From Bdellovibrionota bacterium (GTDB lineage Bacteria > Bdellovibrionota_C > UBA2361 > OMII01): a stretch of 64,000 bases of DNA. The notes under the pieces were generated by a model. It saw nothing but the letters and a program-made list of their open reading frames with translations, did no database searches and had not been told where the DNA came from. Every line of letters begins with the position of its first letter. Position 1 is the stretch's first letter. Location of the stretch: NCBI GenBank assembly GCA_044360075.1, contig JBIKLA010000018.1, positions 2,053 through 66,052 of the forward strand, given 5' to 3'. Shown here piece after piece: positions 40,053 through 58,433 of the stretch. The translations under genes were made by a program, and so were the position numbers.

Positions 40053-41939
40053 GTGAAGGCAGCATCGATCAGCTCACGGGACATTGCAGTGCCTCTTGGC
40101 CTGCTCCTCGTCGTCGGGTGTATCTTAATTCCGCTGCCTCCGGGTATCCTCGATATCCTGCTCTGCTCAAACCTGCTTTTTGCGCTGCTACTTGTAATCG
40201 GATCGCTGCACATTCGCGATCCGCTGCGGATCGCAACGCTCCCCTCGCTTCTCCTCATGGCGACCCTCTCTAGGCTCTCGCTGAACATCGCCACGACGCG
40301 GGCGGTGCTGGGCTCGGGGCACGCGGGCAAGGCGGTGGAGGCCTTCGGCTCTGTCGTGATTCAGGGCAGCGCTGTTGTTGGATTTGTCCTCTTTGTGCTT
40401 ATCACCCTGATTCAGTTTATCGTTGTGGCAAAGGGCGCGGAGCGTGTGGCTGAGGTTGCGGCGCGCTTTACCTTGGACGCCATGCCCGGCAAGCAGATGG
40501 CTATCGACGCGGAGCTGCGCAGCGGGCTGCTCGACCCGGAACAGGCGCGGCGCAAGCGCATGGAGGTCCAGACGGAATCGCGCTTCTACGGCGCGCTCGA
40601 CGGTGCCATGAAGTTCGTCAAAGGGGATGCTATAGCGGGGATCGTCATAACAGCCGTAAATATCTGCGGCGGCCTGCTCATAGGAATTCTCGTCCATCAG
40701 CTCGACCTTGAGGTAGCACTTAGGCGCTACACAATTCTCACCATCGGCGACGGGCTCTTGTCGCAGATTCCGTCACTGCTAAACTCGGTTGCGGCCGGGC
40801 TGGTAGTCACGCGCGTTCAGGTCGATGAGTCATCCACGCTCTCGTCGGACCTCCTCATGCAGCTTGGGCAATTCAGGGCCGCGCGCACGTTCGTTGCCGC
40901 GGCCTCCTTCGTGCTCGGGTGCCTGCCGGGCATGCCGCATGTGGCGCTGCTGGCTGTGAGCTCCGCCATAGCGCTTCCGCTCATCATGGTGCGGCGGGGC
41001 GGTCCCAAAGATGAGCCGCCGCAGCCCAAGCTCTTTGAGCCCAGGCTCGCGCACTCCGTGCAGCTGGAAGTTTCCAAGGCGCTGCTTCCCTGCATGCCGG
41101 CTCTCGACAAAGTGAACGAGGCCCTTGAGGCGATTCGGGAGGATTTTTTCTCGCGCTGGGGGGTCGTGCTCCAGCGCCCTGGATTGTCGCTGTGGGATGA
41201 GCCGCAGGGGGCCTTTCGCATCTTGGTGCGCGGCATGGAGGTTTCGCGCTGCGAGCGCGATCCTGACGCAGCGACGTGGGATCTTCTTCTTCGGGAGGTG
41301 CGGGAGGTTGTCGATGGGCACAAAGCTGAGCTGATCGATGATGGGGCGACGCGACGGGCGCTTGATTACGTTGAGAAGCAGGTTCCTGACCTCGTGACGG
41401 GCACGGTGCCATCGCTGCTGTCACTCACGCAGATGACATCGCTGCTTCGCAGCCTCCTGCGAGAAGATCTCACGACGCGACACCTGGACATCATTCTTCA
41501 AACGATCGCCGAGAGTGGTGGGCGGTTTTCGGAGCGGGCGCTCTTGGCCGAGGTGCGCGTGGCGCTGGCACCGGTGGTCAGCCAGGCTGTGGGTCGTGGC
41601 CGCCGCATTCAGGCTGTGGCGCTTGATCCGCTGCTTGACCTTGCGCTCTCAAAGGCCGAAGAGAGCGCCTCCCTTTTGGCTGGGGACCTCCTTGATCTGG
41701 TCAGCGAAGAGGCAGGCGGGGCGGCGGCGAAGGGCCTTCCGATCCTCACGTCAAAGCGGGCACGGGCTTACGTAAGGGATATCGTCCGGGTGCGCTGGCC
41801 GCACGCAGTCATCATCGCGCATGAGGAAGTAGCCCCGCGCTATGAGCTTGAGATCGTTGGAAAGATAGAGGTGGCGCAGGAGCATCAGCGCGAGCAGCTG
41901 CTAAGCGCCACCCTGGGGATGAGGGAGGCGCGGGCATGA
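40053..41939 (+). CDS. sctV: Type III secretion export gate protein SctV (FlhA/LcrD, FHIPEP family)
   Basis: KGAERVAEVAARFTLDAMPGKQMAIDAEL, DGAMKFVKGDAIAG and LTIGDGLLSQIP motifs, about 8 TM helices. MKFVKGD is the injectisome-type variant (FlhA is usually SKFVRGD). Confidence 0.95.
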   Translation: MKAASISSRDIAVPLGLLLVVGCILIPLPPGILDILLCSNLLFALLLVIGSLHIRDPLRIATLPSLLLMATLSRLSLNIATTRAVLGSGHAGKAVEAFGSVVIQGSAVVGFVLFVLITLIQFIVVAKGAERVAEVAARFTLDAMPGKQMAIDAELRSGLLDPEQARRKRMEVQTESRFYGALDGAMKFVKGDAIAGIVITAVNICGGLLIGILVHQLDLEVALRRYTILTIGDGLLSQIPSLLNSVAAGLVVTRVQVDESSTLSSDLLMQLGQFRAARTFVAAASFVLGCLPGMPHVALLAVSSAIALPLIMVRRGGPKDEPPQPKLFEPRLAHSVQLEVSKALLPCMPALDKVNEALEAIREDFFSRWGVVLQRPGLSLWDEPQGAFRILVRGMEVSRCERDPDAATWDLLLREVREVVDGHKAELIDDGATRRALDYVEKQVPDLVTGTVPSLLSLTQMTSLLRSLLREDLTTRHLDIILQTIAESGGRFSERALLAEVRVALAPVVSQAVGRGRRIQAVALDPLLDLALSKAEESASLLAGDLLDLVSEEAGGAAAKGLPILTSKRARAYVRDIVRVRWPHAVIIAHEEVAPRYELEIVGKIEVAQEHQREQLLSATLGMREARA

Positions 41940-51354: not shown

Positions 51355-52134
51355 ATGAAGCGAGTAGTCACCAATTCCGTCAGGACCCTGGTCTTCTGCC
51401 TATCAACGGCAACAATCAAGACCCGCATCCACTTCTTTCCTTCGGCGGGCAGCGCGGGCGGCCACATGCCCGTCACGTGCATCCTCACGCTCTTCGGCAA
51501 GGGCCTTGAGAAGAAGACGGTAATGCTCGACGGCGGGCGCCTTAACCAGCCTGATGGCCTGCGGCTTGAGGACGCGTTTCCGGCCCTGCGCGGAGAGGTT
51601 TCCGGAGTGTTTGGCCTTGAGGTCCGGCTCTCGTGCCCGCAGGGCCGCGTCAATCTGCTGAACTCCCAGGCTGCTGTTGAGTTCGTGTCGTCGACGTCTT
51701 CGATGCTCTATGGAGGAGCCCCGTTCTCTCCGATGACCGAGGAGGTCGATGAGATGAGCGTGTCGTCCATCGTCGATCGTATTGAGCCGCTTCAGAAGCG
51801 CAGCCCGACCGCCGTAGCGGTACAGGACGCAAGCCTTACCTCGTCGCTGGTGATCGTCAATGCGGGCCCGGAGGCCCTTAAGCCGGAGCTCACGCACGTG
51901 GCGGGAGAGTCGACCAAGCCGCTGCACCTCGGAACTCTCTCACCTGAGTCCGTGATCGAGGTTCCCCTCGACGAGGCGCTGTTCAGGGAGAGCAGCGTCA
52001 AAGAGACGCTGTGGGGAGCGACCAAAGTCGAGAAGATGGTCCTGCCGGAGTTTTCGCGCTCGCCCGAGTCGTCGTACTACATTCTGTACCGCGATCCCTC
52101 GTCCAAGCGTCCCGTGAGTGTCTGCTCGATATGA
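51355..52134 (+). CDS. Hypothetical beta-rich protein
   Basis: GGAAGAGAG RBS; ATGA-coupled to the next gene. Confidence 0.75.
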   Translation: MKRVVTNSVRTLVFCLSTATIKTRIHFFPSAGSAGGHMPVTCILTLFGKGLEKKTVMLDGGRLNQPDGLRLEDAFPALRGEVSGVFGLEVRLSCPQGRVNLLNSQAAVEFVSSTSSMLYGGAPFSPMTEEVDEMSVSSIVDRIEPLQKRSPTAVAVQDASLTSSLVIVNAGPEALKPELTHVAGESTKPLHLGTLSPESVIEVPLDEALFRESSVKETLWGATKVEKMVLPEFSRSPESSYYILYRDPSSKRPVSVCSI

Positions 52135-52910
52135 AACTAGCGGTCTTTAACCCCTATGGGCTCATGGATCAGGAGTCTGGGGTGGTGTACCTGCTCGCCA
52201 ATTTTTTGGGGAAGCAGGGGGCCGAAGTGCTCCAGCTGCGCTGTGACGGCGCCCAGCAGGCCTGCGCCCGTGACGTACTGAGTGGCGGGGTGCGCACCCC
52301 TTTTTCTTGCTCCCAATGCAGCGGCGAGCAGGCGGCGTTGGCGCAATGGTGCGGGGCGCGGCCCAAGGCACTCTCATCGCTCCTGAGCCCGAGCGACATC
52401 TCGCAGACTGCGCAGTGGCTCGCAGCTGCGGCGGGAGATGCCCTGTTTCGAGTCGAATTTCGCGGCGTAAACCTGTGGGAGCAATGCAGGGAGCAGTTCG
52501 TTTCACAGTGGAAGCTCCAGCCGGGCCAAGAGCTCACCCCTCAGCTCGACCGCAGCCTGCGGCAGCTCTTCACCTCCTACATGCACACCCGAATAGCTTC
52601 GGAGCGCTTCATCGCGGCATCCAAGGCGACCGCCCATTTCGTGACGAGACCTCGCGACGCCGCCTCGTCGGCGTACCTCGCTGAGGCGCGGGCCGCTTCC
52701 GGCAGCGAAATAGCCACCTTCTCATTCTCTGCAGAAGACGAGGCTATCCTCATAGAGACTGATGGCTCGCCACACCGCTACGAAACGCGGCTCGTCCTGC
52801 AGGGCATCACCTCCATGCGCAGCGACTTCCGCACATGGGCCCCTGAGGTGACTGCGATGGTGCATGAGATGCTTTCGTTTCTTGGGTATGCGCCAGATCG
52901 CCTTGCCTGA
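52131..52910 (+). CDS. Hypothetical Cys-motif protein resembling the N-terminal half of capsule-synthesis-type enzymes
   Basis: ESGVVYLLANFLGKQGAEVLQLRCDG...AC...FSCSQC pattern; ATGA overlap at 52131. Confidence 0.55.
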   Translation: MKLAVFNPYGLMDQESGVVYLLANFLGKQGAEVLQLRCDGAQQACARDVLSGGVRTPFSCSQCSGEQAALAQWCGARPKALSSLLSPSDISQTAQWLAAAAGDALFRVEFRGVNLWEQCREQFVSQWKLQPGQELTPQLDRSLRQLFTSYMHTRIASERFIAASKATAHFVTRPRDAASSAYLAEARAASGSEIATFSFSAEDEAILIETDGSPHRYETRLVLQGITSMRSDFRTWAPEVTAMVHEMLSFLGYAPDRLA

Positions 52911-52931: not shown

Positions 52932-53534
52932 TCACGTCGTCTCGTGTGCCGCCGACCAGGCCGCTCTTGTGATTGCAACCCGATCTTCGGCCACCCACTG
53001 CCCGCGCTTCTGGAAACCCTCGGGGAGGTGCTTTGCAAAAGAGAGTCCGGCCCTCTCCAAAACTTTCTTGCTGGCAAGGTTCCAAGTTGCGTACGCAGCC
53101 TCAATTCGCTCCGCCTGCAGCGACTCAAACCCAAATCTCACTATCGCTTGTACGGCCTCGCTCATGTATCCCTTGCCCTGCTGGTCAGGGTGGGTCCAGT
53201 AGCCGAGGCTCCACACATTCGGCTCGGTGGTGCGGCGAATAGACACCCTCCCGATAAAATCCCCGCCCTGACGGCCATCGATCGTAAAAGAGTACGATTG
53301 GCCCTGCTCCCAAGCCTGAATGCATGAGCGTAGCGGCTCATGCAGCTCCTCTATCGTGGCCGGCGGATCCCACAGCATGCCGTCGTTAAAGCCTGGGTGG
53401 CGTGTGGCAGAGAAAACGGACGGGATGTCCTTCTCAGACGGAATGCGGAGCTGGCATCGGGGGGTCAGGATGGTGACGTCTTTGGGTAGGGGCGGTGGGA
53501 GGGCAGCCCGGGGATGTGTGTCTTGAGTTCGCAT
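52932..53534 (-). CDS. GNAT N-acetyltransferase, RimJ/RimL family
   Basis: LGYWTHPDQQGKGYMSEAV and NLASKKVLERAG motifs. Confidence 0.92.
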   Translation of the reverse strand: MRTQDTHPRAALPPPLPKDVTILTPRCQLRIPSEKDIPSVFSATRHPGFNDGMLWDPPATIEELHEPLRSCIQAWEQGQSYSFTIDGRQGGDFIGRVSIRRTTEPNVWSLGYWTHPDQQGKGYMSEAVQAIVRFGFESLQAERIEAAYATWNLASKKVLERAGLSFAKHLPEGFQKRGQWVAEDRVAITRAAWSAAHETT

Positions 53535-53558: not shown

Positions 53559-56500
53559 CTAAGACCCGCCCGACGAGGGCCGCGGCAGACGCTCAAACCG
53601 AATCCGTGTTTTTGGGTTCGGCAGGAGCGCCTGCAGGGCTTTCGGGAGAACCTTGGCGATCGCTGGGGACGGGGCACCGTTTGCAATGGTCTCGCGCAGC
53701 AGTGCCGACACGGCCTTTTTCGGCACCATGCCGCCGAAGATGCCGCTATTCTTCTTGATAAATGGCATGACGATATCGGCGCACTCCTCCGCATAGAGCT
53801 GCTGTAGGCTTGGCGGCATGTCGGCTGAGAGGCCACTCGTAAGAAGCTGCATGAGTGTCTCACTCGACATCGGCGCGAGTGCCTTGAAGTAGTCGCCGAG
53901 CGATAGGATTGCCTTCTGCGCCTCGGTTACCATCTTCGATACCGGTATTCCCTGTTCGCGCAGCTGGCCCAGGATCCCCACCATGACTGGCGCAATGTCG
54001 GAGGGGGACGAGCACAGCATGGCGGTTGAGATGAGAACCTTCGCTAGCTGCCGGTGGTCGTCGTGAGACCACTGCTCAAGCGCCATAGCCTTGAAGTCGA
54101 AATGCCCGATGCCCTTGCCGATAGCAATCTGGCCGCCGTGCCGATCGCAGTCGAACTCTCCCTTGAGAATCGCGTTAAACTCCCGGGCTAGGATGGCCTT
54201 GGCCATGCGCTGCAGCTCAGGAGTCGTCCCGTCCCGCTCAAGTCGCGTGATGAAGTGCTCGCCCTTCATCTCTGACATTGTGAAAAAGTCCTCGCCGGAC
54301 CGAAACACCTCAGCCGAATCGAGCGGGATGGCGTGCCCGTCGACGTGGGCCACGAAACCACGGTAGTTCGCCGCAGCCCGCTCATATTGGGCCTTCGACA
54401 CCCAAAAATTTGACTCAAGCGAAGCCCGCTCGCGCGCGTCAGTTATAATGGGACGAATTGACTGCGCGATCGGATCGTCCTTGTCCATCGAGGCCACCAT
54501 GCGCAGCATGATGTCAAAGCCGTCCTCTGCGCGGGCTTGGCAATTGGGGCGCCGCAGGCACAACAATCCCTCATTGACCTCAACGACGATATTCATCGAG
54601 CCGCACCCACGCAGCTTGCCGATATGCCCGAAGGACACCCCGTCCCGAGCCTCGATGATGTCAAGGAGGCGGAATATCTGGGCGCGTGATGGTGCCTGCG
54701 TCTTGTACTTAAGGTGCCGCGCGTGCTCAATAAGGTCACGACGAAAATCGTCAGGAAGCCCCGGGGCATCCATGAGGACCTGTACGAACTTGATCTCCGC
54801 TGGCCCCTGGCTTTCGGCGAACTTGGCTAGGATTGCCCCGGGCGTCGTGGCTGCCTGCCTACCGGGCTGCCCGGCGGTAAGGAGCGCAACGAGGGCGAGG
54901 TGCTGGGCGTGTTCCGGAAGGGCGTGAACGTAGCGCTTAAGGAGATCTCGTGTTGCCGCATGGTGCGGCATGCTTGGAGGAAGCACCGCCTCTACAACGA
55001 AGTCGAATGAGTTATCCACCGAGAGCCGGGCTGCAGTGGGAAGAAGCTCCTTGGCGAAAAGAGCCCGGCCCTCAAGGGGAAGCCGCCAAAACTCCTTGTG
55101 GAGCATCTTGAGGGTATTGCGGGTTATCATGCGCGATGCCGACTCAAGATCGTCGAACCCGCGGGCGCTGGCACCGGTTTGCGGAAGCATGTGCACGATC
55201 TGTTCAGTGAGGTCTGCAGTTTCGGCTGGGGTGCCCTCACTAAGCAGATAGCGCAAGAAACGGTTGCGCTCCTCTTCGTGGGCCTTTACCACAGTGATCA
55301 GGGCCTCGGCGTCGTGACCTAGCGCCAGGAGGGAGAACTTGGAGAAAGCGCGGGAGGATTGCACCAGCCGCTCGATGGTCATGGAGCATTCGCGTTGGCT
55401 TAGAAGTGATTCGGCCAGTTCAAAACCGAGCTGCTGCAGGTCAGCCCCTGCTGTTGAGTCGACGAGCGGTTGGATCCGCTCCTCAACGCGCCGTCTGAAG
55501 CCCTCGGAACGATCGTCGGCACCGAGCGTCAGCGCGGCATCCTTAACCCACATTGAGATAATTCGGTCTCGCAGCTCCGGCTGCCGTATTCTCGAGCCCG
55601 AGAGCAGCCGCTCAAGGGCGGCACGGCGAGGCTCAGAGGGGAGCTCAAGCTTCTCGATAGAGGAAAGTATGTGCGCCAGGAACCTCTCCTCCGCCTTGGT
55701 GCCGAGCAGGTCAAGCGCATAGAGATCTCGCCATGCCCTGGCCAAGTCCGGCACTGAGGGGCCGTCCTGCTCGAACGGTATCTTCGCTATGAGGGGGGAG
55801 ATCTCCGATGAGGTAAGGAAGCGCCACGGGTCGTTGAAGCCCATCTCGAGGCGCTTGCAGATTGATGCTATGGTCACAAGGTCCGAACTGGTGAGCGAGC
55901 CAGACTGAAGAATTCCGAGTAGATCTGTGGTACACAGCGCCATTGAGCCTGAAATTGATTGGCTTCCGGGGGCCCCGTCGCTAATTGAATCCCAGTCCGT
56001 AAAGAGAGAGTTCTGGGGTTGGGAATCGATCCACTGGAGCAGCGCCTTCGCAGAGATCTGTTTCGGGTACCCAAGGCGTTTTTCGCAGAGGCTGCGCATC
56101 TCGTCGGGGACGTAGTTGTTTGTCTCGGTTGCCGCCTGGCGCACCACGCTTCGTATCTGGTCATCCGATAGGTCGGGCGCGAGCGTTGTGACAAAAGCCC
56201 GCAGGGGGGAGGTGACCGTCTTCTGCGAGGAAGACGCACGCGCATCCCGCTCCACATGGGGGTCTCGGTAGTAGAGCTGAAAAGACTTAGAGGGCAAGAG
56301 TTCAACCACGGCGTCGTACAGCGGGCGATTGCTGGCCTTCGCTGCACTAAGGGCCGCAAAAAGATCGAGGATATTCCGTTCGGTGAATTCCTCCTTGTGG
56401 GAGAGCGCTATCGAGGCATTTTTGGCATGCATCACGATGAAGTGTGAGTTCTCTAGCACGACCTTGAGCAGCTCCGGGTCACACGAGGCGCCGGGCGTGC

Positions 56501-58433: not shown

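Follow-up and report, generated by a model that had tools for sequence, protein, structure and literature searches.

A giant Bdellovibrionota protein joining an M48-type metallopeptidase domain to a divergent UbiB/ABC1-fold domain

The window analysed here, a 64,000-nucleotide stretch of DNA from a Bdellovibrionota bacterium, carries on its minus strand a gene for a giant protein that is made of three parts: an M48 endopeptidase, a scaffold of about 770 residues, and a domain of the UbiB/ABC1 fold. Neighbouring genes code for a GNAT acetyltransferase, a YdcZ exporter, an HD hydrolase and a periplasmic binding protein, and the gene is present in a single copy in its own genome. The overall layout of the locus is as follows (aa, amino acid positions of the protein):

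53559..58433, minus strand: whole gene (1,624 codons and a stop codon); a single uninterrupted open reading frame, product predicted to be soluble
58269..58433, minus strand: variable N-terminal extension rich in Ser, Ala and Pro, aa 1-55 (13-36% identity among orthologues)
58260..58295, minus strand: conserved motif IAPQRYSSYHEQ, aa 47-58, upstream of the alternative start M62 (orthologue alignment)
57444..58250, minus strand: M48 (BepA-type) zinc metallopeptidase domain, aa 62-330 (Pfam, BepA profile match, AF2 and Foldseek)
55137..57443, minus strand: fast-evolving scaffold, aa 331-1099 (32-57% identity among orthologues)
53574..55136, minus strand: divergent UbiB/ABC1-fold domain, aa 1100-1620 (AF2, Foldseek, PF03109 in relatives, motif alignment to canonical UbiB)

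Neither a signal peptide nor a transmembrane segment was found in the whole 1,624-aa protein, in which the highest 19-residue Kyte-Doolittle mean is 1.37. The first 55 residues include 9 Ser, 8 Ala and 8 Pro, so that composition and hydropathy agree with the earlier note on this DNA, which had described an N-terminus of about 55 residues rich in S, P, T and A and devoid of signal or membrane segment. This extension is missing from the Micavibrio-type clade of the family. The public gene call of the same protein (P0002) is 1,563 residues long and starts at M62; since IAPQRYSSYHEQ, which lies upstream of M62, is kept in orthologues of 45-64% identity, the longer reading frame is likely the correct one. 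A helical linker of about 900 residues had also been proposed, and helices are indeed predicted for those parts of it that were modelled with AF2, namely residues 331-560 of the scaffold and residues 1100-1200.

Within the protease domain, three sites could be placed by alignment:

57867..57881, minus strand: HELTH zinc-binding and catalytic motif, aa 185-189 (H185, E186, H189; motif alignment)
57804..57821, minus strand: EEALCD, aa 205-210, with E206 the predicted third zinc ligand (aligned to BepA E201)
57681..57683, minus strand: H251, aligned to the His of 'THPLPESR' in BepA (profile-to-PDB alignment)

The Pfam M48 profile (PF01435) recognised the whole protein marginally, at 20.5 bits against a gathering cut-off of 20.3 (E = 4.6e-4), and scored 22.9 bits (E = 8.4e-5) with the N-terminal piece alone; in relatives the match was clear, with 16 of 20 tested family members recovered and a best E of 1e-11. 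When the AF2 model of the domain (pLDDT 82) was searched against the PDB, the only matches at high Foldseek probability (1.0) were BepA (6AIT; E = 1.6e-4) and 3C37 (E = 2.5e-2). The M48-like domain with HELTH and a downstream EEALCD that had been read from the sequence is therefore upheld by Pfam in the relatives, by structure prediction and by profile alignment. Among the 106 family representatives that have an M48 module, the HExxH motif together with the E206 position is complete in 103, position 206 is Glu in 104, and H251 is conserved in 103. The domain is thus predicted to be a zinc endopeptidase with a complete catalytic set. In BepA the 'THP' His acts as a zinc-blocking, auto-inhibitory residue, and H251 is its aligned counterpart.

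The C-terminal domain was more elusive at the sequence level. PF03109, the Pfam ABC1 profile, gave no match to the protein at E up to 1, nor in a six-frame search of the gene, and an NCBIfam search with the protein gave no match either. A PDB sequence search with a family profile of the C-terminal domain returned no UbiB match; its sole match, a HopA1 fragment (E = 0.61), was discarded as chance. Because Pfam ABC1 misses the protein itself, the UbiB assignment rests on relatives, fold and motif alignment. PF03109 matches 7 of 20 relatives tested (best E = 3e-7). The AF2 model of the domain (pLDDT 87, pTM 0.85) has as its nine best PDB matches structures of the UbiB family throughout, namely of MSMEG_1954, Rv3197 and COQ8A, with Foldseek E-values of 1.6e-7 to 2.5e-4 and TM-scores, on the target, of 0.39-0.54. 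The ABC1/AarF-like domain named in the earlier note is supported by these data, and with it the fusion of M48 and ABC1/UbiB-like modules is real, as Pfam in relatives, structure prediction and fold search agree. The domain behaves as a sister family and not as an orthologue of UbiB. Its motifs align to canonical UbiB at the following sites:

54780..54794, minus strand: IKFVQ, corresponding to KxGQ but with Val in place of Gly
54546..54566, minus strand: beta3 strand LLCLRRP, aa 1290-1296, with C1292 at the place of the canonical VAVK Lys (alignment and AF2)
54414..54416, minus strand: E1340, equivalent of the alphaC Glu (invariant in 156/156 representatives)
54129..54152, minus strand: catalytic loop DCDRHGGQ, aa 1428-1435 (D1430 and H1432 invariant in 156/156)
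54090..54098, minus strand: DFK, corresponding to DFG, aa 1446-1448 (D1446 invariant in 156/156)

All motifs quoted in the earlier note (HELTH, EEALCD, LLCL, DCDRHGGQ and DFK) were found in their places, and the alignment confirmed the last three as deviations from kinase motifs. In the clade to which the protein belongs, four hallmark positions are altered: the beta3 Lys to Cys, the KxGQ Gly to Val, the loop Asn to Gln and the DFG Gly to Lys. Of the 156 family representatives, 24 have Lys at the position of C1292, 19 have Arg and 113 have another residue (K/R 28%); position 1435, Asn in the canonical loop HxDxHxGN, is Gln in 116 and Asn in 40; and the DFG Gly-to-Lys change is the mark of one clade (33/156).

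These substitutions invite the interpretation, raised as one option in the earlier note, that the C-terminal domain is a true pseudokinase, a non-catalytic nucleotide, lipid or protein binder or scaffold that leaves M48 as the sole enzyme activity. The lost beta3 Lys, the substituted DFG Gly, KxGQ Gly and loop Asn of the clade, and the failure of Pfam ABC1 to recognise the protein would all be expected under it. However, all 156 representatives retain D1430 and D1446 (the catalytic and the DFG Asp), E1340 of alphaC and Q1218 of KxGQ, and 153 of them retain K1215, the Lys of KxGQ. No other region of the protein is as well conserved as the UbiB-like domain, with 65-82% identity among orthologues versus 32-57% for the scaffold. 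As the strongest constraint in the protein falls on this domain, it is not a decayed kinase, and we regard the pseudokinase label as probably wrong and this alternative as unlikely. By analogy with UbiB/COQ8, a role as an ATPase-type switch is more probable for the domain than one as a protein kinase; the four altered hallmark positions in the clade leave its use of ATP putative.

Whether another residue stands in for the missing Lys can be addressed within the family. In the window protein, R1294 lies two residues past C1292 and hence points to the same side of the strand, R1295 hardly varies within the family, and DFK places a Lys (K1448) at the DFG Gly position. DFK is confined to sequences with no K/R at the beta3 position (33, versus 0 of the 43 with K/R there); in the tree, however, every DFK sequence falls into one clade, so that the association reflects a single event and is not statistical evidence. 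In addition, 79 of the 156 members have no K/R at the beta3, +2 or DFK position and still keep all other catalytic residues, which argues further against a pseudokinase. Compensation by K/R as a family-wide rule was dropped on both grounds. The earlier suggestion of a residue replacing the Lys thus survives only for the protein's own clade, where R1294, K1448 and R1275 are candidate compensating residues that we offer as leads; the family as a whole seems independent of the beta3 Lys, given that these 79 members have no substitute yet keep the remaining catalytic residues.

The family of the protein is large: it comprises at least 560 clusters when grouped at 50% identity, and its members are named at best "hypothetical protein". 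Full-text literature searches found no paper on the family or on an M48 plus ABC1/UbiB fusion, in keeping with the earlier remark that no characterised fusion of the two is known. In the databases searched, the family was found only in uncultured lineages and under no informative protein name; the carriers are small genomes labelled Micavibrio, Bdellovibrionota, Peribacteria/Patescibacteria and Melainabacteria. Within the phylum of the window, 25 of 124 genomes (20%) carry the protein, and in the order around Micavibrio 12 of 151 (8%) do. The idea that all predators have the family was ruled out by a single carrier (G128, Pseudobdellovibrionaceae) among the 301 genomes of its phylum.

Identity to the syntenic orthologue in genome G024 is 46%, compared with mostly 51-84%, typically about 66%, for the neighbouring genes, and other gene contexts surround the orthologue in G023 and that on the contig of the closest relative, P0003. 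The protein is an accessory, mobile and comparatively fast-evolving member of its family. The earlier note had set its effector proposal against conservation of the protein as a housekeeping enzyme in relatives that lack a type III secretion system (T3SS). The family does occur without a T3SS, but the protein is not housekeeping, because it is single-copy, patchy (25/124) and found in different contexts in close relatives. The same distribution bears on the possibility that the protein replaces UbiB in quinone biosynthesis. The genome of the window has no canonical PF03109 protein, as such a replacement would imply, but only one in five genomes of the phylum carries the giant protein, and the Micavibrio-type carriers own it together with a canonical UbiB, so that this possibility is already close to refuted.

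A T3SS-like operon lies about 12 kb from the gene, and this distance is kept in G024. The proposal that the protein is a T3SS substrate gained no support: no chaperone or T3SS gene is adjacent, the family is present in genomes without any FHIPEP protein (G125, Peribacteria, and G127), and co-occurrence with a T3SS is uninformative because a T3SS-like SctV orthologue is found in 122 of the 124 genomes of the phylum. The adjacent GNAT acetyltransferase has no chaperone features, and it was rejected as an operon partner since G024 lacks the downstream GNAT gene and the GNAT gene at L037 is convergent. In the contexts examined, no partner, chaperone or secretion gene was conserved beside family members.

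Variation among family members gives further hints as to where these proteins act. Sec-signal-like N-termini occur in 9 of 106 two-module members, and Sec signals are absent from about 90% of the family. Three relatives have C-terminal hydrophobic anchors as in canonical UbiB. One subfamily has a SidE-PDE domain in place of M48 (E = 1.3e-54 and 1.6e-31); of three members checked, two have ankyrin repeats in addition. One 5,715-aa member appeared leucine-rich-repeat-like by eye only. The Sec-signal relatives and the SidE-PDE fusions lend indirect support to the general idea of an exported effector, and the protein appears closer to an accessory weapon or effector than to an enzyme of housekeeping.

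An accessory, patchy and fast-evolving family, usually encoded by a single gene, might also serve in anti-phage or abortive-infection defence, with the scaffold as a large sensor and the protease and ATPase domains as effectors, and one distant relative does have a type I restriction-modification system and a Fic gene as neighbours. However, a PADLOC search of four family members gave no match at E up to 0.1, the remaining contexts examined are free of defence genes, and Sec signals as well as SidE-PDE and ankyrin fusions are ill-suited to an intracellular phage sensor. In our judgement, known defence systems usually occur in well-studied taxa too, which sits poorly with a family seen only in uncultured lineages. 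Taken together, a role in defence seems very improbable.

A different explanation places the protein inside its own cell. Under it, the protein would be a cell-autonomous cytoplasmic quality-control factor in which the UbiB-like domain senses the lipid or quinone state of the cell's own membrane and M48 trims membrane-associated proteins, a fused counterpart of the M48 and ABC1K pair of plant plastoglobules. The missing export signal in the window protein and in about 90% of the family, and the three relatives with UbiB-like anchors, fit such a membrane-facing cytoplasmic role as well as they fit an effector, and no canonical UbiB was found in the genome by the PF03109 six-frame search. Known M48 enzymes such as HtpX, Oma1, Ste24 and BepA act on membrane-associated substrates. 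UbiB proteins do so as well (10.1101/149823), and the plastoglobule M48 protease PGM48 shares its location and its expression pattern with ABC1K7 and ABC1K3 (10.1101/2021.02.05.430006). On the other side, patchiness (20% of the phylum, 8% of the Micavibrio order), changing contexts and fast divergence are untypical of a core factor, and the Sec-signal variants and the SidE-PDE subfamily point outward; we therefore consider quality control possible but somewhat doubtful.

The reading that we tentatively prefer, at a probability of roughly 0.4, is that of an exported or contact-delivered effector in which a UbiB-type switch governs an M48 protease. The C-terminal domain would then be a UbiB-type ATP-binding or ATPase switch, neither a protein kinase nor a dead pseudokinase. 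It would work with the invariant or nearly invariant Lys and Gln of KxGQ, the Glu of alphaC, the catalytic Asp and the Asp of DFG, and could dispense with the beta3 Lys. [quoted passage not shown] Through the scaffold, the switch might control or target the M48 protease, a coupling that we purely infer, and H251 may block the M48 zinc as the 'THP' His does in BepA. Acting outside the housekeeping of its producer, the effector would attack membrane-associated proteins of a prey or host cell, and the T3SS-like system encoded about 12 kb from the gene, which has no needle, would be just one candidate export route. Several points weigh against this effector reading: the window protein has no recognisable export signal, no partner, chaperone or secretion gene is conserved beside it, most of the family lack Sec signals, and the T3SS-like system is near-universal in the phylum where the protein is patchy, with the family also present in FHIPEP-less genomes.

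A bolder version, which we consider decidedly unlikely, would make the family a new class of nucleotide-gated protease effectors, in which a Lys-independent UbiB-fold ATPase senses target-cell ATP together with membrane lipids or quinones, and a helical scaffold of about 800 residues then releases a latent, possibly His-blocked M48 protease; such effectors would be cargo of the needle-less T3SS-like (or a Tad-linked) contact machine about 12 kb away, in a possibly predatory lineage.

Bacteria, archaea and eukaryotes all have UbiB/ABC1 proteins, one of which, COQ8A, is encoded by a human disease gene. What these proteins do biochemically is still unclear, with ATPase activity tracking COQ8 function best (10.1101/149823). 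The fusion of this soluble fold to a protease, an enzyme whose output can be read, offers a natural 'Rosetta stone' for what UbiB folds couple to, and the family shows that strong selection can maintain the fold even where the classical beta3 Lys is absent. Should the effector reading hold, predatory, epibiotic and intracellular bacteria would have a large unstudied family of giant proteins added to their toolkits.

Among known systems, the protease half resembles E. coli BepA (YfgC; 6AIT, 6SAR) and a soluble M48 peptidase of Geobacter (3C37), with which it shares the M48 fold. It has in common with BepA the upstream 'NA', the HExxH motif and the Glu zinc ligand in an ExxxD helix; its downstream His, in 'D.H...R', aligns with 'THPLPESR' of BepA, and as in BepA helical elements follow directly after the protease. 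In contrast to BepA, the window protein has no signal peptide and so is not periplasmic via Sec; H189 and E206 are 17 residues apart versus about 61, with about 45 fewer residues between the HExxH and Glu helices; and in sequence the family profile matches BepA weakly (E about 0.01). Unlike BepA and 3C37, it has 1,300 extra residues including the kinase-fold domain. Characterised M48 enzymes are typically membrane or periplasmic proteins, although this is no defining feature of theirs, and the window protein, with no signal or transmembrane segment predicted, departs from this pattern.

The C-terminal domain shares its fold with the UbiB family (COQ8A, 7UDQ; Rv3197, 5YK0-2; MSMEG_1954, 7CYR), along with a KxGQ-type motif within an N-terminal helical extension, an alphaC Glu in 'E-x-D/N', a D-x-H-x-G-N/Q loop and the DFG Asp. 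It differs from UbiB in reading G-C-G-S at the Ala-rich loop, KFVQ for KxGQ, HGGQ for HPGN, DFK for DFG and Cys for the beta3 Lys, in having no transmembrane anchor and in being fused to a protease.

As a large, soluble, multi-enzyme, accessory and fast-evolving protein, it is reminiscent of the SidE-type effectors of Legionella, although it has neither the SidE PDE nor ankyrin domains and no family member is a demonstrated secretion substrate; a survey of the Legionella pan-kinome lists only the housekeeping ABC1 protein lpg2905 (PMC9758233). The plastoglobule proteins PGM48 and ABC1K are separate plastid proteins of the canonical families, related to the window protein at the family level, and no functional coupling between them is known from the study cited (10.1101/2021.02.05.430006). 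They nevertheless bring to one lipid-body surface the same two activities that are fused in the window protein, and the fusion thus parallels the unexplained co-occurrence of M48 and ABC1K on plant plastoglobules.

The gene is an uninterrupted open reading frame of 1,624 residues running from 58433 to 53559 on the minus strand of the window. A coordinate check placed every motif quoted in the earlier note, which had proposed a translocated M48/ABC1 (pseudo)kinase effector, where that note had read it:

Motifs of the giant protein
aa 185-189 (57867-57881), minus strand: HELTH, M48 domain
aa 205-210, minus strand: EEALCD, M48 domain
aa 1290-1296, minus strand: LLCLRRP, UbiB-like domain, beta3
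aa 1428-1435, minus strand: DCDRHGGQ, UbiB-like domain, catalytic loop
aa 1446-1448, minus strand: DFK, UbiB-like domain, DFG position

Composition and a hydrophobicity scan confirmed that the first 55 residues are S/A/P-rich and carry no signal or membrane segment. The same holds for the whole protein, since no 19-residue window exceeds a mean Kyte-Doolittle value of 1.37. The public gene call (P0002) uses an alternative start at M62; upstream of it, however, the motif IAPQRYSSYHEQ (aa 47-58) is kept in orthologues of only 45-64% identity, and the longer frame is therefore probably the translated one. A clear Shine-Dalgarno sequence is absent upstream of both candidate starts. At the other end of the protein (aa 1608-1624; 53562-53612) lies a short motif, (I/L)-(R/Q)-F-(E/I)-(R/K), that recurs as the last residues of many family members. 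As this motif forms a beta-strand in the AF2 model (model residues 513-516), the extreme C-terminus looks structurally integrated, unlike a free secretion tail.

The M48-like domain proved to be a genuine M48 zinc protease by Pfam, profile alignment, AF2/Foldseek and motif conservation. The Pfam M48 score of the window protein itself is barely over the cut-off (20.5 versus 20.3 bits); of 20 family members, 16 are matched by the Pfam model, the best of them at E = 1e-11. Against E. coli BepA the family profile aligns over two stretches, pairing the 'NA' motif, HExxH, E206 with the third zinc ligand of BepA (E201), and H251 with the His of BepA 'THPLPESR'. For aa 55-560, AF2 gave a model (pLDDT 82) whose only high-probability Foldseek matches in the PDB were BepA (6AIT) and the Geobacter M48 peptidase 3C37. 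Relative to BepA, the giant protein lacks about 45 residues between the helices bearing HExxH and the Glu. Among 106 family representatives with an M48 module, 103 have the complete HExxH+E206 set and 103 retain H251; in the window protein the M48 active site is intact.

For the ABC1/AarF-like domain described in the earlier note, the fold and motifs were borne out, but Pfam ABC1 gives no match to the window protein itself, and no UbiB structure was found by sequence when the family profile was searched against the PDB. PF03109 does match 7 of 20 relatives (best 3e-7), and likewise the family members P0100, P0150 and P0042. The nine top PDB matches of the AF2 model of aa 1100-1624 (pLDDT 87, pTM 0.85) are all UbiB-family structures (MSMEG_1954, Rv3197, COQ8A; Foldseek E 1.6e-7 to 2.5e-4), with ordinary protein kinases ranking below them. 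In a profile alignment with a canonical UbiB from a Micavibrio genome, the KxGQ motif, nucleotide loop, beta3, catalytic loop and DFG all pair. The C-terminal domain is therefore of the UbiB/ABC1 fold, a divergent sister of that family.

Both the motif and the profile alignment agree with the earlier reading that the beta3 Lys of VAVK is missing, its place being taken by C1292. Of 156 representative domains, 24 have K here, 19 have R and 113 have some other residue, so that the absence of the Lys is, on sequence comparison, a property of the family and not a lesion of the window copy. The rest of the site is nearly or fully invariant:

Conservation of nucleotide-site residues among 156 representatives
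K1215: KxGQ Lys, 153
Q1218: KxGQ Gln, 156
R1295: beta3, 147
E1340: alphaC Glu, 156
D1430: catalytic Asp, 156
H1432: catalytic loop, 156
D1446: DFG Asp, 156

Between orthologues the UbiB-like domain is also the best-conserved region (65-82% identity), followed by the M48 domain (47-71%), the scaffold (32-57%) and the N-terminal extension (13-36%). Lys loss throughout the family, the invariant residues and this top conservation together make a decaying pseudokinase unlikely; the predicted nucleotide site is strongly constrained without the classical Lys. K1215, R1294, K1448 and R1275 are candidates for residues that may compensate. DFK in place of DFG marks a single clade (33/156, including the window protein), and the window protein's own subclade additionally has KFVQ, C1292 and R1294; 79 of the 156 members have no K/R at beta3 or at +2 and no DFK. 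DFK has a single origin in the tree, so that its link with Lys loss represents one event and proves nothing; we dropped compensation as a general rule and retain it as a clade-specific lead.

Searching a library of 50%-identity representatives with the C-terminal profile retrieved 1,716 proteins at E <=1e-3 and 560 at E <=1e-30, the best 150 being mostly 1,450-2,000 residues long with the UbiB-like domain at the C-terminus. In 121 representatives the stretch preceding that domain is 900 residues or longer, and 102 of these contain an M48 module; the N-terminal part differs in the remaining 19, which make up a subfamily. All three M48-less members checked contain a SidE phosphodiesterase domain (E 1.3e-54, E 1.6e-31 and one precomputed match), two of them with ankyrin repeats. 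This sister subfamily (P0144, P0150, P0155 [L040, 10001-18199]) retains the scaffold and the UbiB-like domain, with GPAY[IV]K[LM]AQ ... YDFGEM. In the 5,715-aa member P0123, a complete M48-scaffold-UbiB-like unit forms the C-terminal third, the remainder being made up of large duplicated modules together with stretches that looked leucine-rich-repeat-like by eye. Members are named only 'hypothetical protein' in every source, and a full-text literature search found no description of an M48-UbiB-like fusion, in line with the earlier note. In a survey of the Legionella pan-kinome, the only ABC1 protein mentioned is the housekeeping one (PMC9758233). A role in defence is unlikely, there being no PADLOC match for four family members.

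The giant gene is accessory, mobile and fast-evolving. A contig of the congeneric genome G024 (C67, loci L045-L047) is collinear, in inverted orientation, with 27600-64000 of the window, and carries the orthologue in the same slot, between a PAS histidine kinase (61042-62334) and an ORF at 52011-52910. This orthologue is only 46% identical, against mostly 51-84% (typically ~66%) for the neighbouring genes. Four extra genes flank the giant gene in the window, through either insertion there or deletion in G024:

Genes absent from the G024 slot
52932-53534: GNAT, downstream of the giant gene
58575-59078: YdcZ, upstream
59075-59806: HD_3 hydrolase, upstream
59734-61020: periplasmic binding protein, upstream

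The orthologue of G023, like that on the contig carrying the closest relative (P0003), is surrounded by unrelated genes, and no partner gene is conserved across the examined contexts. A distant member (locus L038, 1-9400) adjoins type I restriction-modification genes (hsdR, hsdS, hsdM), an AAA_13 gene and a Fic gene, the sole defence-island-like context among those seen.

The gene is single-copy in its own genome (a 3.28-Mb assembly, 98.9% complete). Within the phylum of that genome the family is carried by 25 of 124 genomes, which belong to 12 of 64 genera and to a single order. The order around a Micavibrio carrier has 12 carriers among 151 genomes, and the phylum to which a Pseudobdellovibrionaceae carrier belongs has just one among 301. 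This sparse, patchy distribution rules out a general 'predator' marker. Other carriers are labelled Micavibrio, unclassified Alphaproteobacteria, Peribacteria, Patescibacteria, Caenarcanales (class Vampirovibriophyceae of Melainabacteria) and one 'Methanobacteriota' bin. Those examined have genomes of 1.1-2.7 Mb, and the distribution leans to small-genome lineages; for several of these lineages, dependence on other cells is known or suspected. A PF03109 search of the window's genome found no canonical UbiB/ABC1 protein, the best matches being partial (20-27 bits) and on unrelated kinase-like ORFs. That the giant protein fills the housekeeping role of UbiB is nevertheless unlikely, given the patchy distribution and the canonical UbiB that some carriers possess besides it.

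A non-flagellar T3SS-like locus does lie in the window, with an SctV-like gene (40053-41939) ~12 kb from the giant gene and equally spaced in G024. However, the SctV-like orthologue is found in 122 of the 124 phylum genomes and the giant protein in 25, so that their co-occurrence carries no information. The window's genome has three FHIPEP paralogues (contigs C10, C44, C54). In this organism the data speak neither for nor against a T3SS link; as a general family property it is excluded by carriers such as G125 (Peribacteria) and G127, without any FHIPEP protein. The SctV-like ORF continues across a single in-frame TAG in seven or more genomes of the genus (G002, G100, G104, G105, G106, G109, G024) and through TAA in G017 and also G024; a single conserved position would suggest a split gene or readthrough, the alternative being assembly errors.

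The protein is soluble, combining an M48 protease, a UbiB-fold site and a variable scaffold. Of the activities of COQ8/UbiB proteins, ATP hydrolysis follows function best, and both cardiolipin membranes and phenols stimulate it; a candidate nucleophilic water is bound by the KxGQ Gln, and protein substrates have no access to the active site (10.1101/149823). The invariant residues of the family are, by analogy, those required by this chemistry. The UbiB-like domain may therefore be an ATP-driven, probably lipid-responsive switch, not a protein kinase, that would control or target the protease. Hydrophobicity scans, the basis of all our signal-peptide calls, detected a Sec-signal-like N-terminus (e.g. 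MKLRLFLLAVCAVLLGPAHALA) in 9 of 106 two-module members, and 3 of the 106 have hydrophobic C-terminal tails. With ~90% of members lacking export signals, the main rival, somewhat less probable than the reading given next, is a cytoplasmic, membrane-facing quality-control enzyme, for which plant plastoglobules offer a precedent: the M48 protease PGM48 is co-expressed there with ABC1K7 and ABC1K3 (10.1101/2021.02.05.430006). The Sec-signal relatives, the SidE-phosphodiesterase and ankyrin subfamily, the patchy distribution and the rate of divergence point instead to action on another cell following export or contact-dependent delivery, to which we give a probability of roughly 40%. That subfamily shares the domain vocabulary of Dot/Icm-type effectors.
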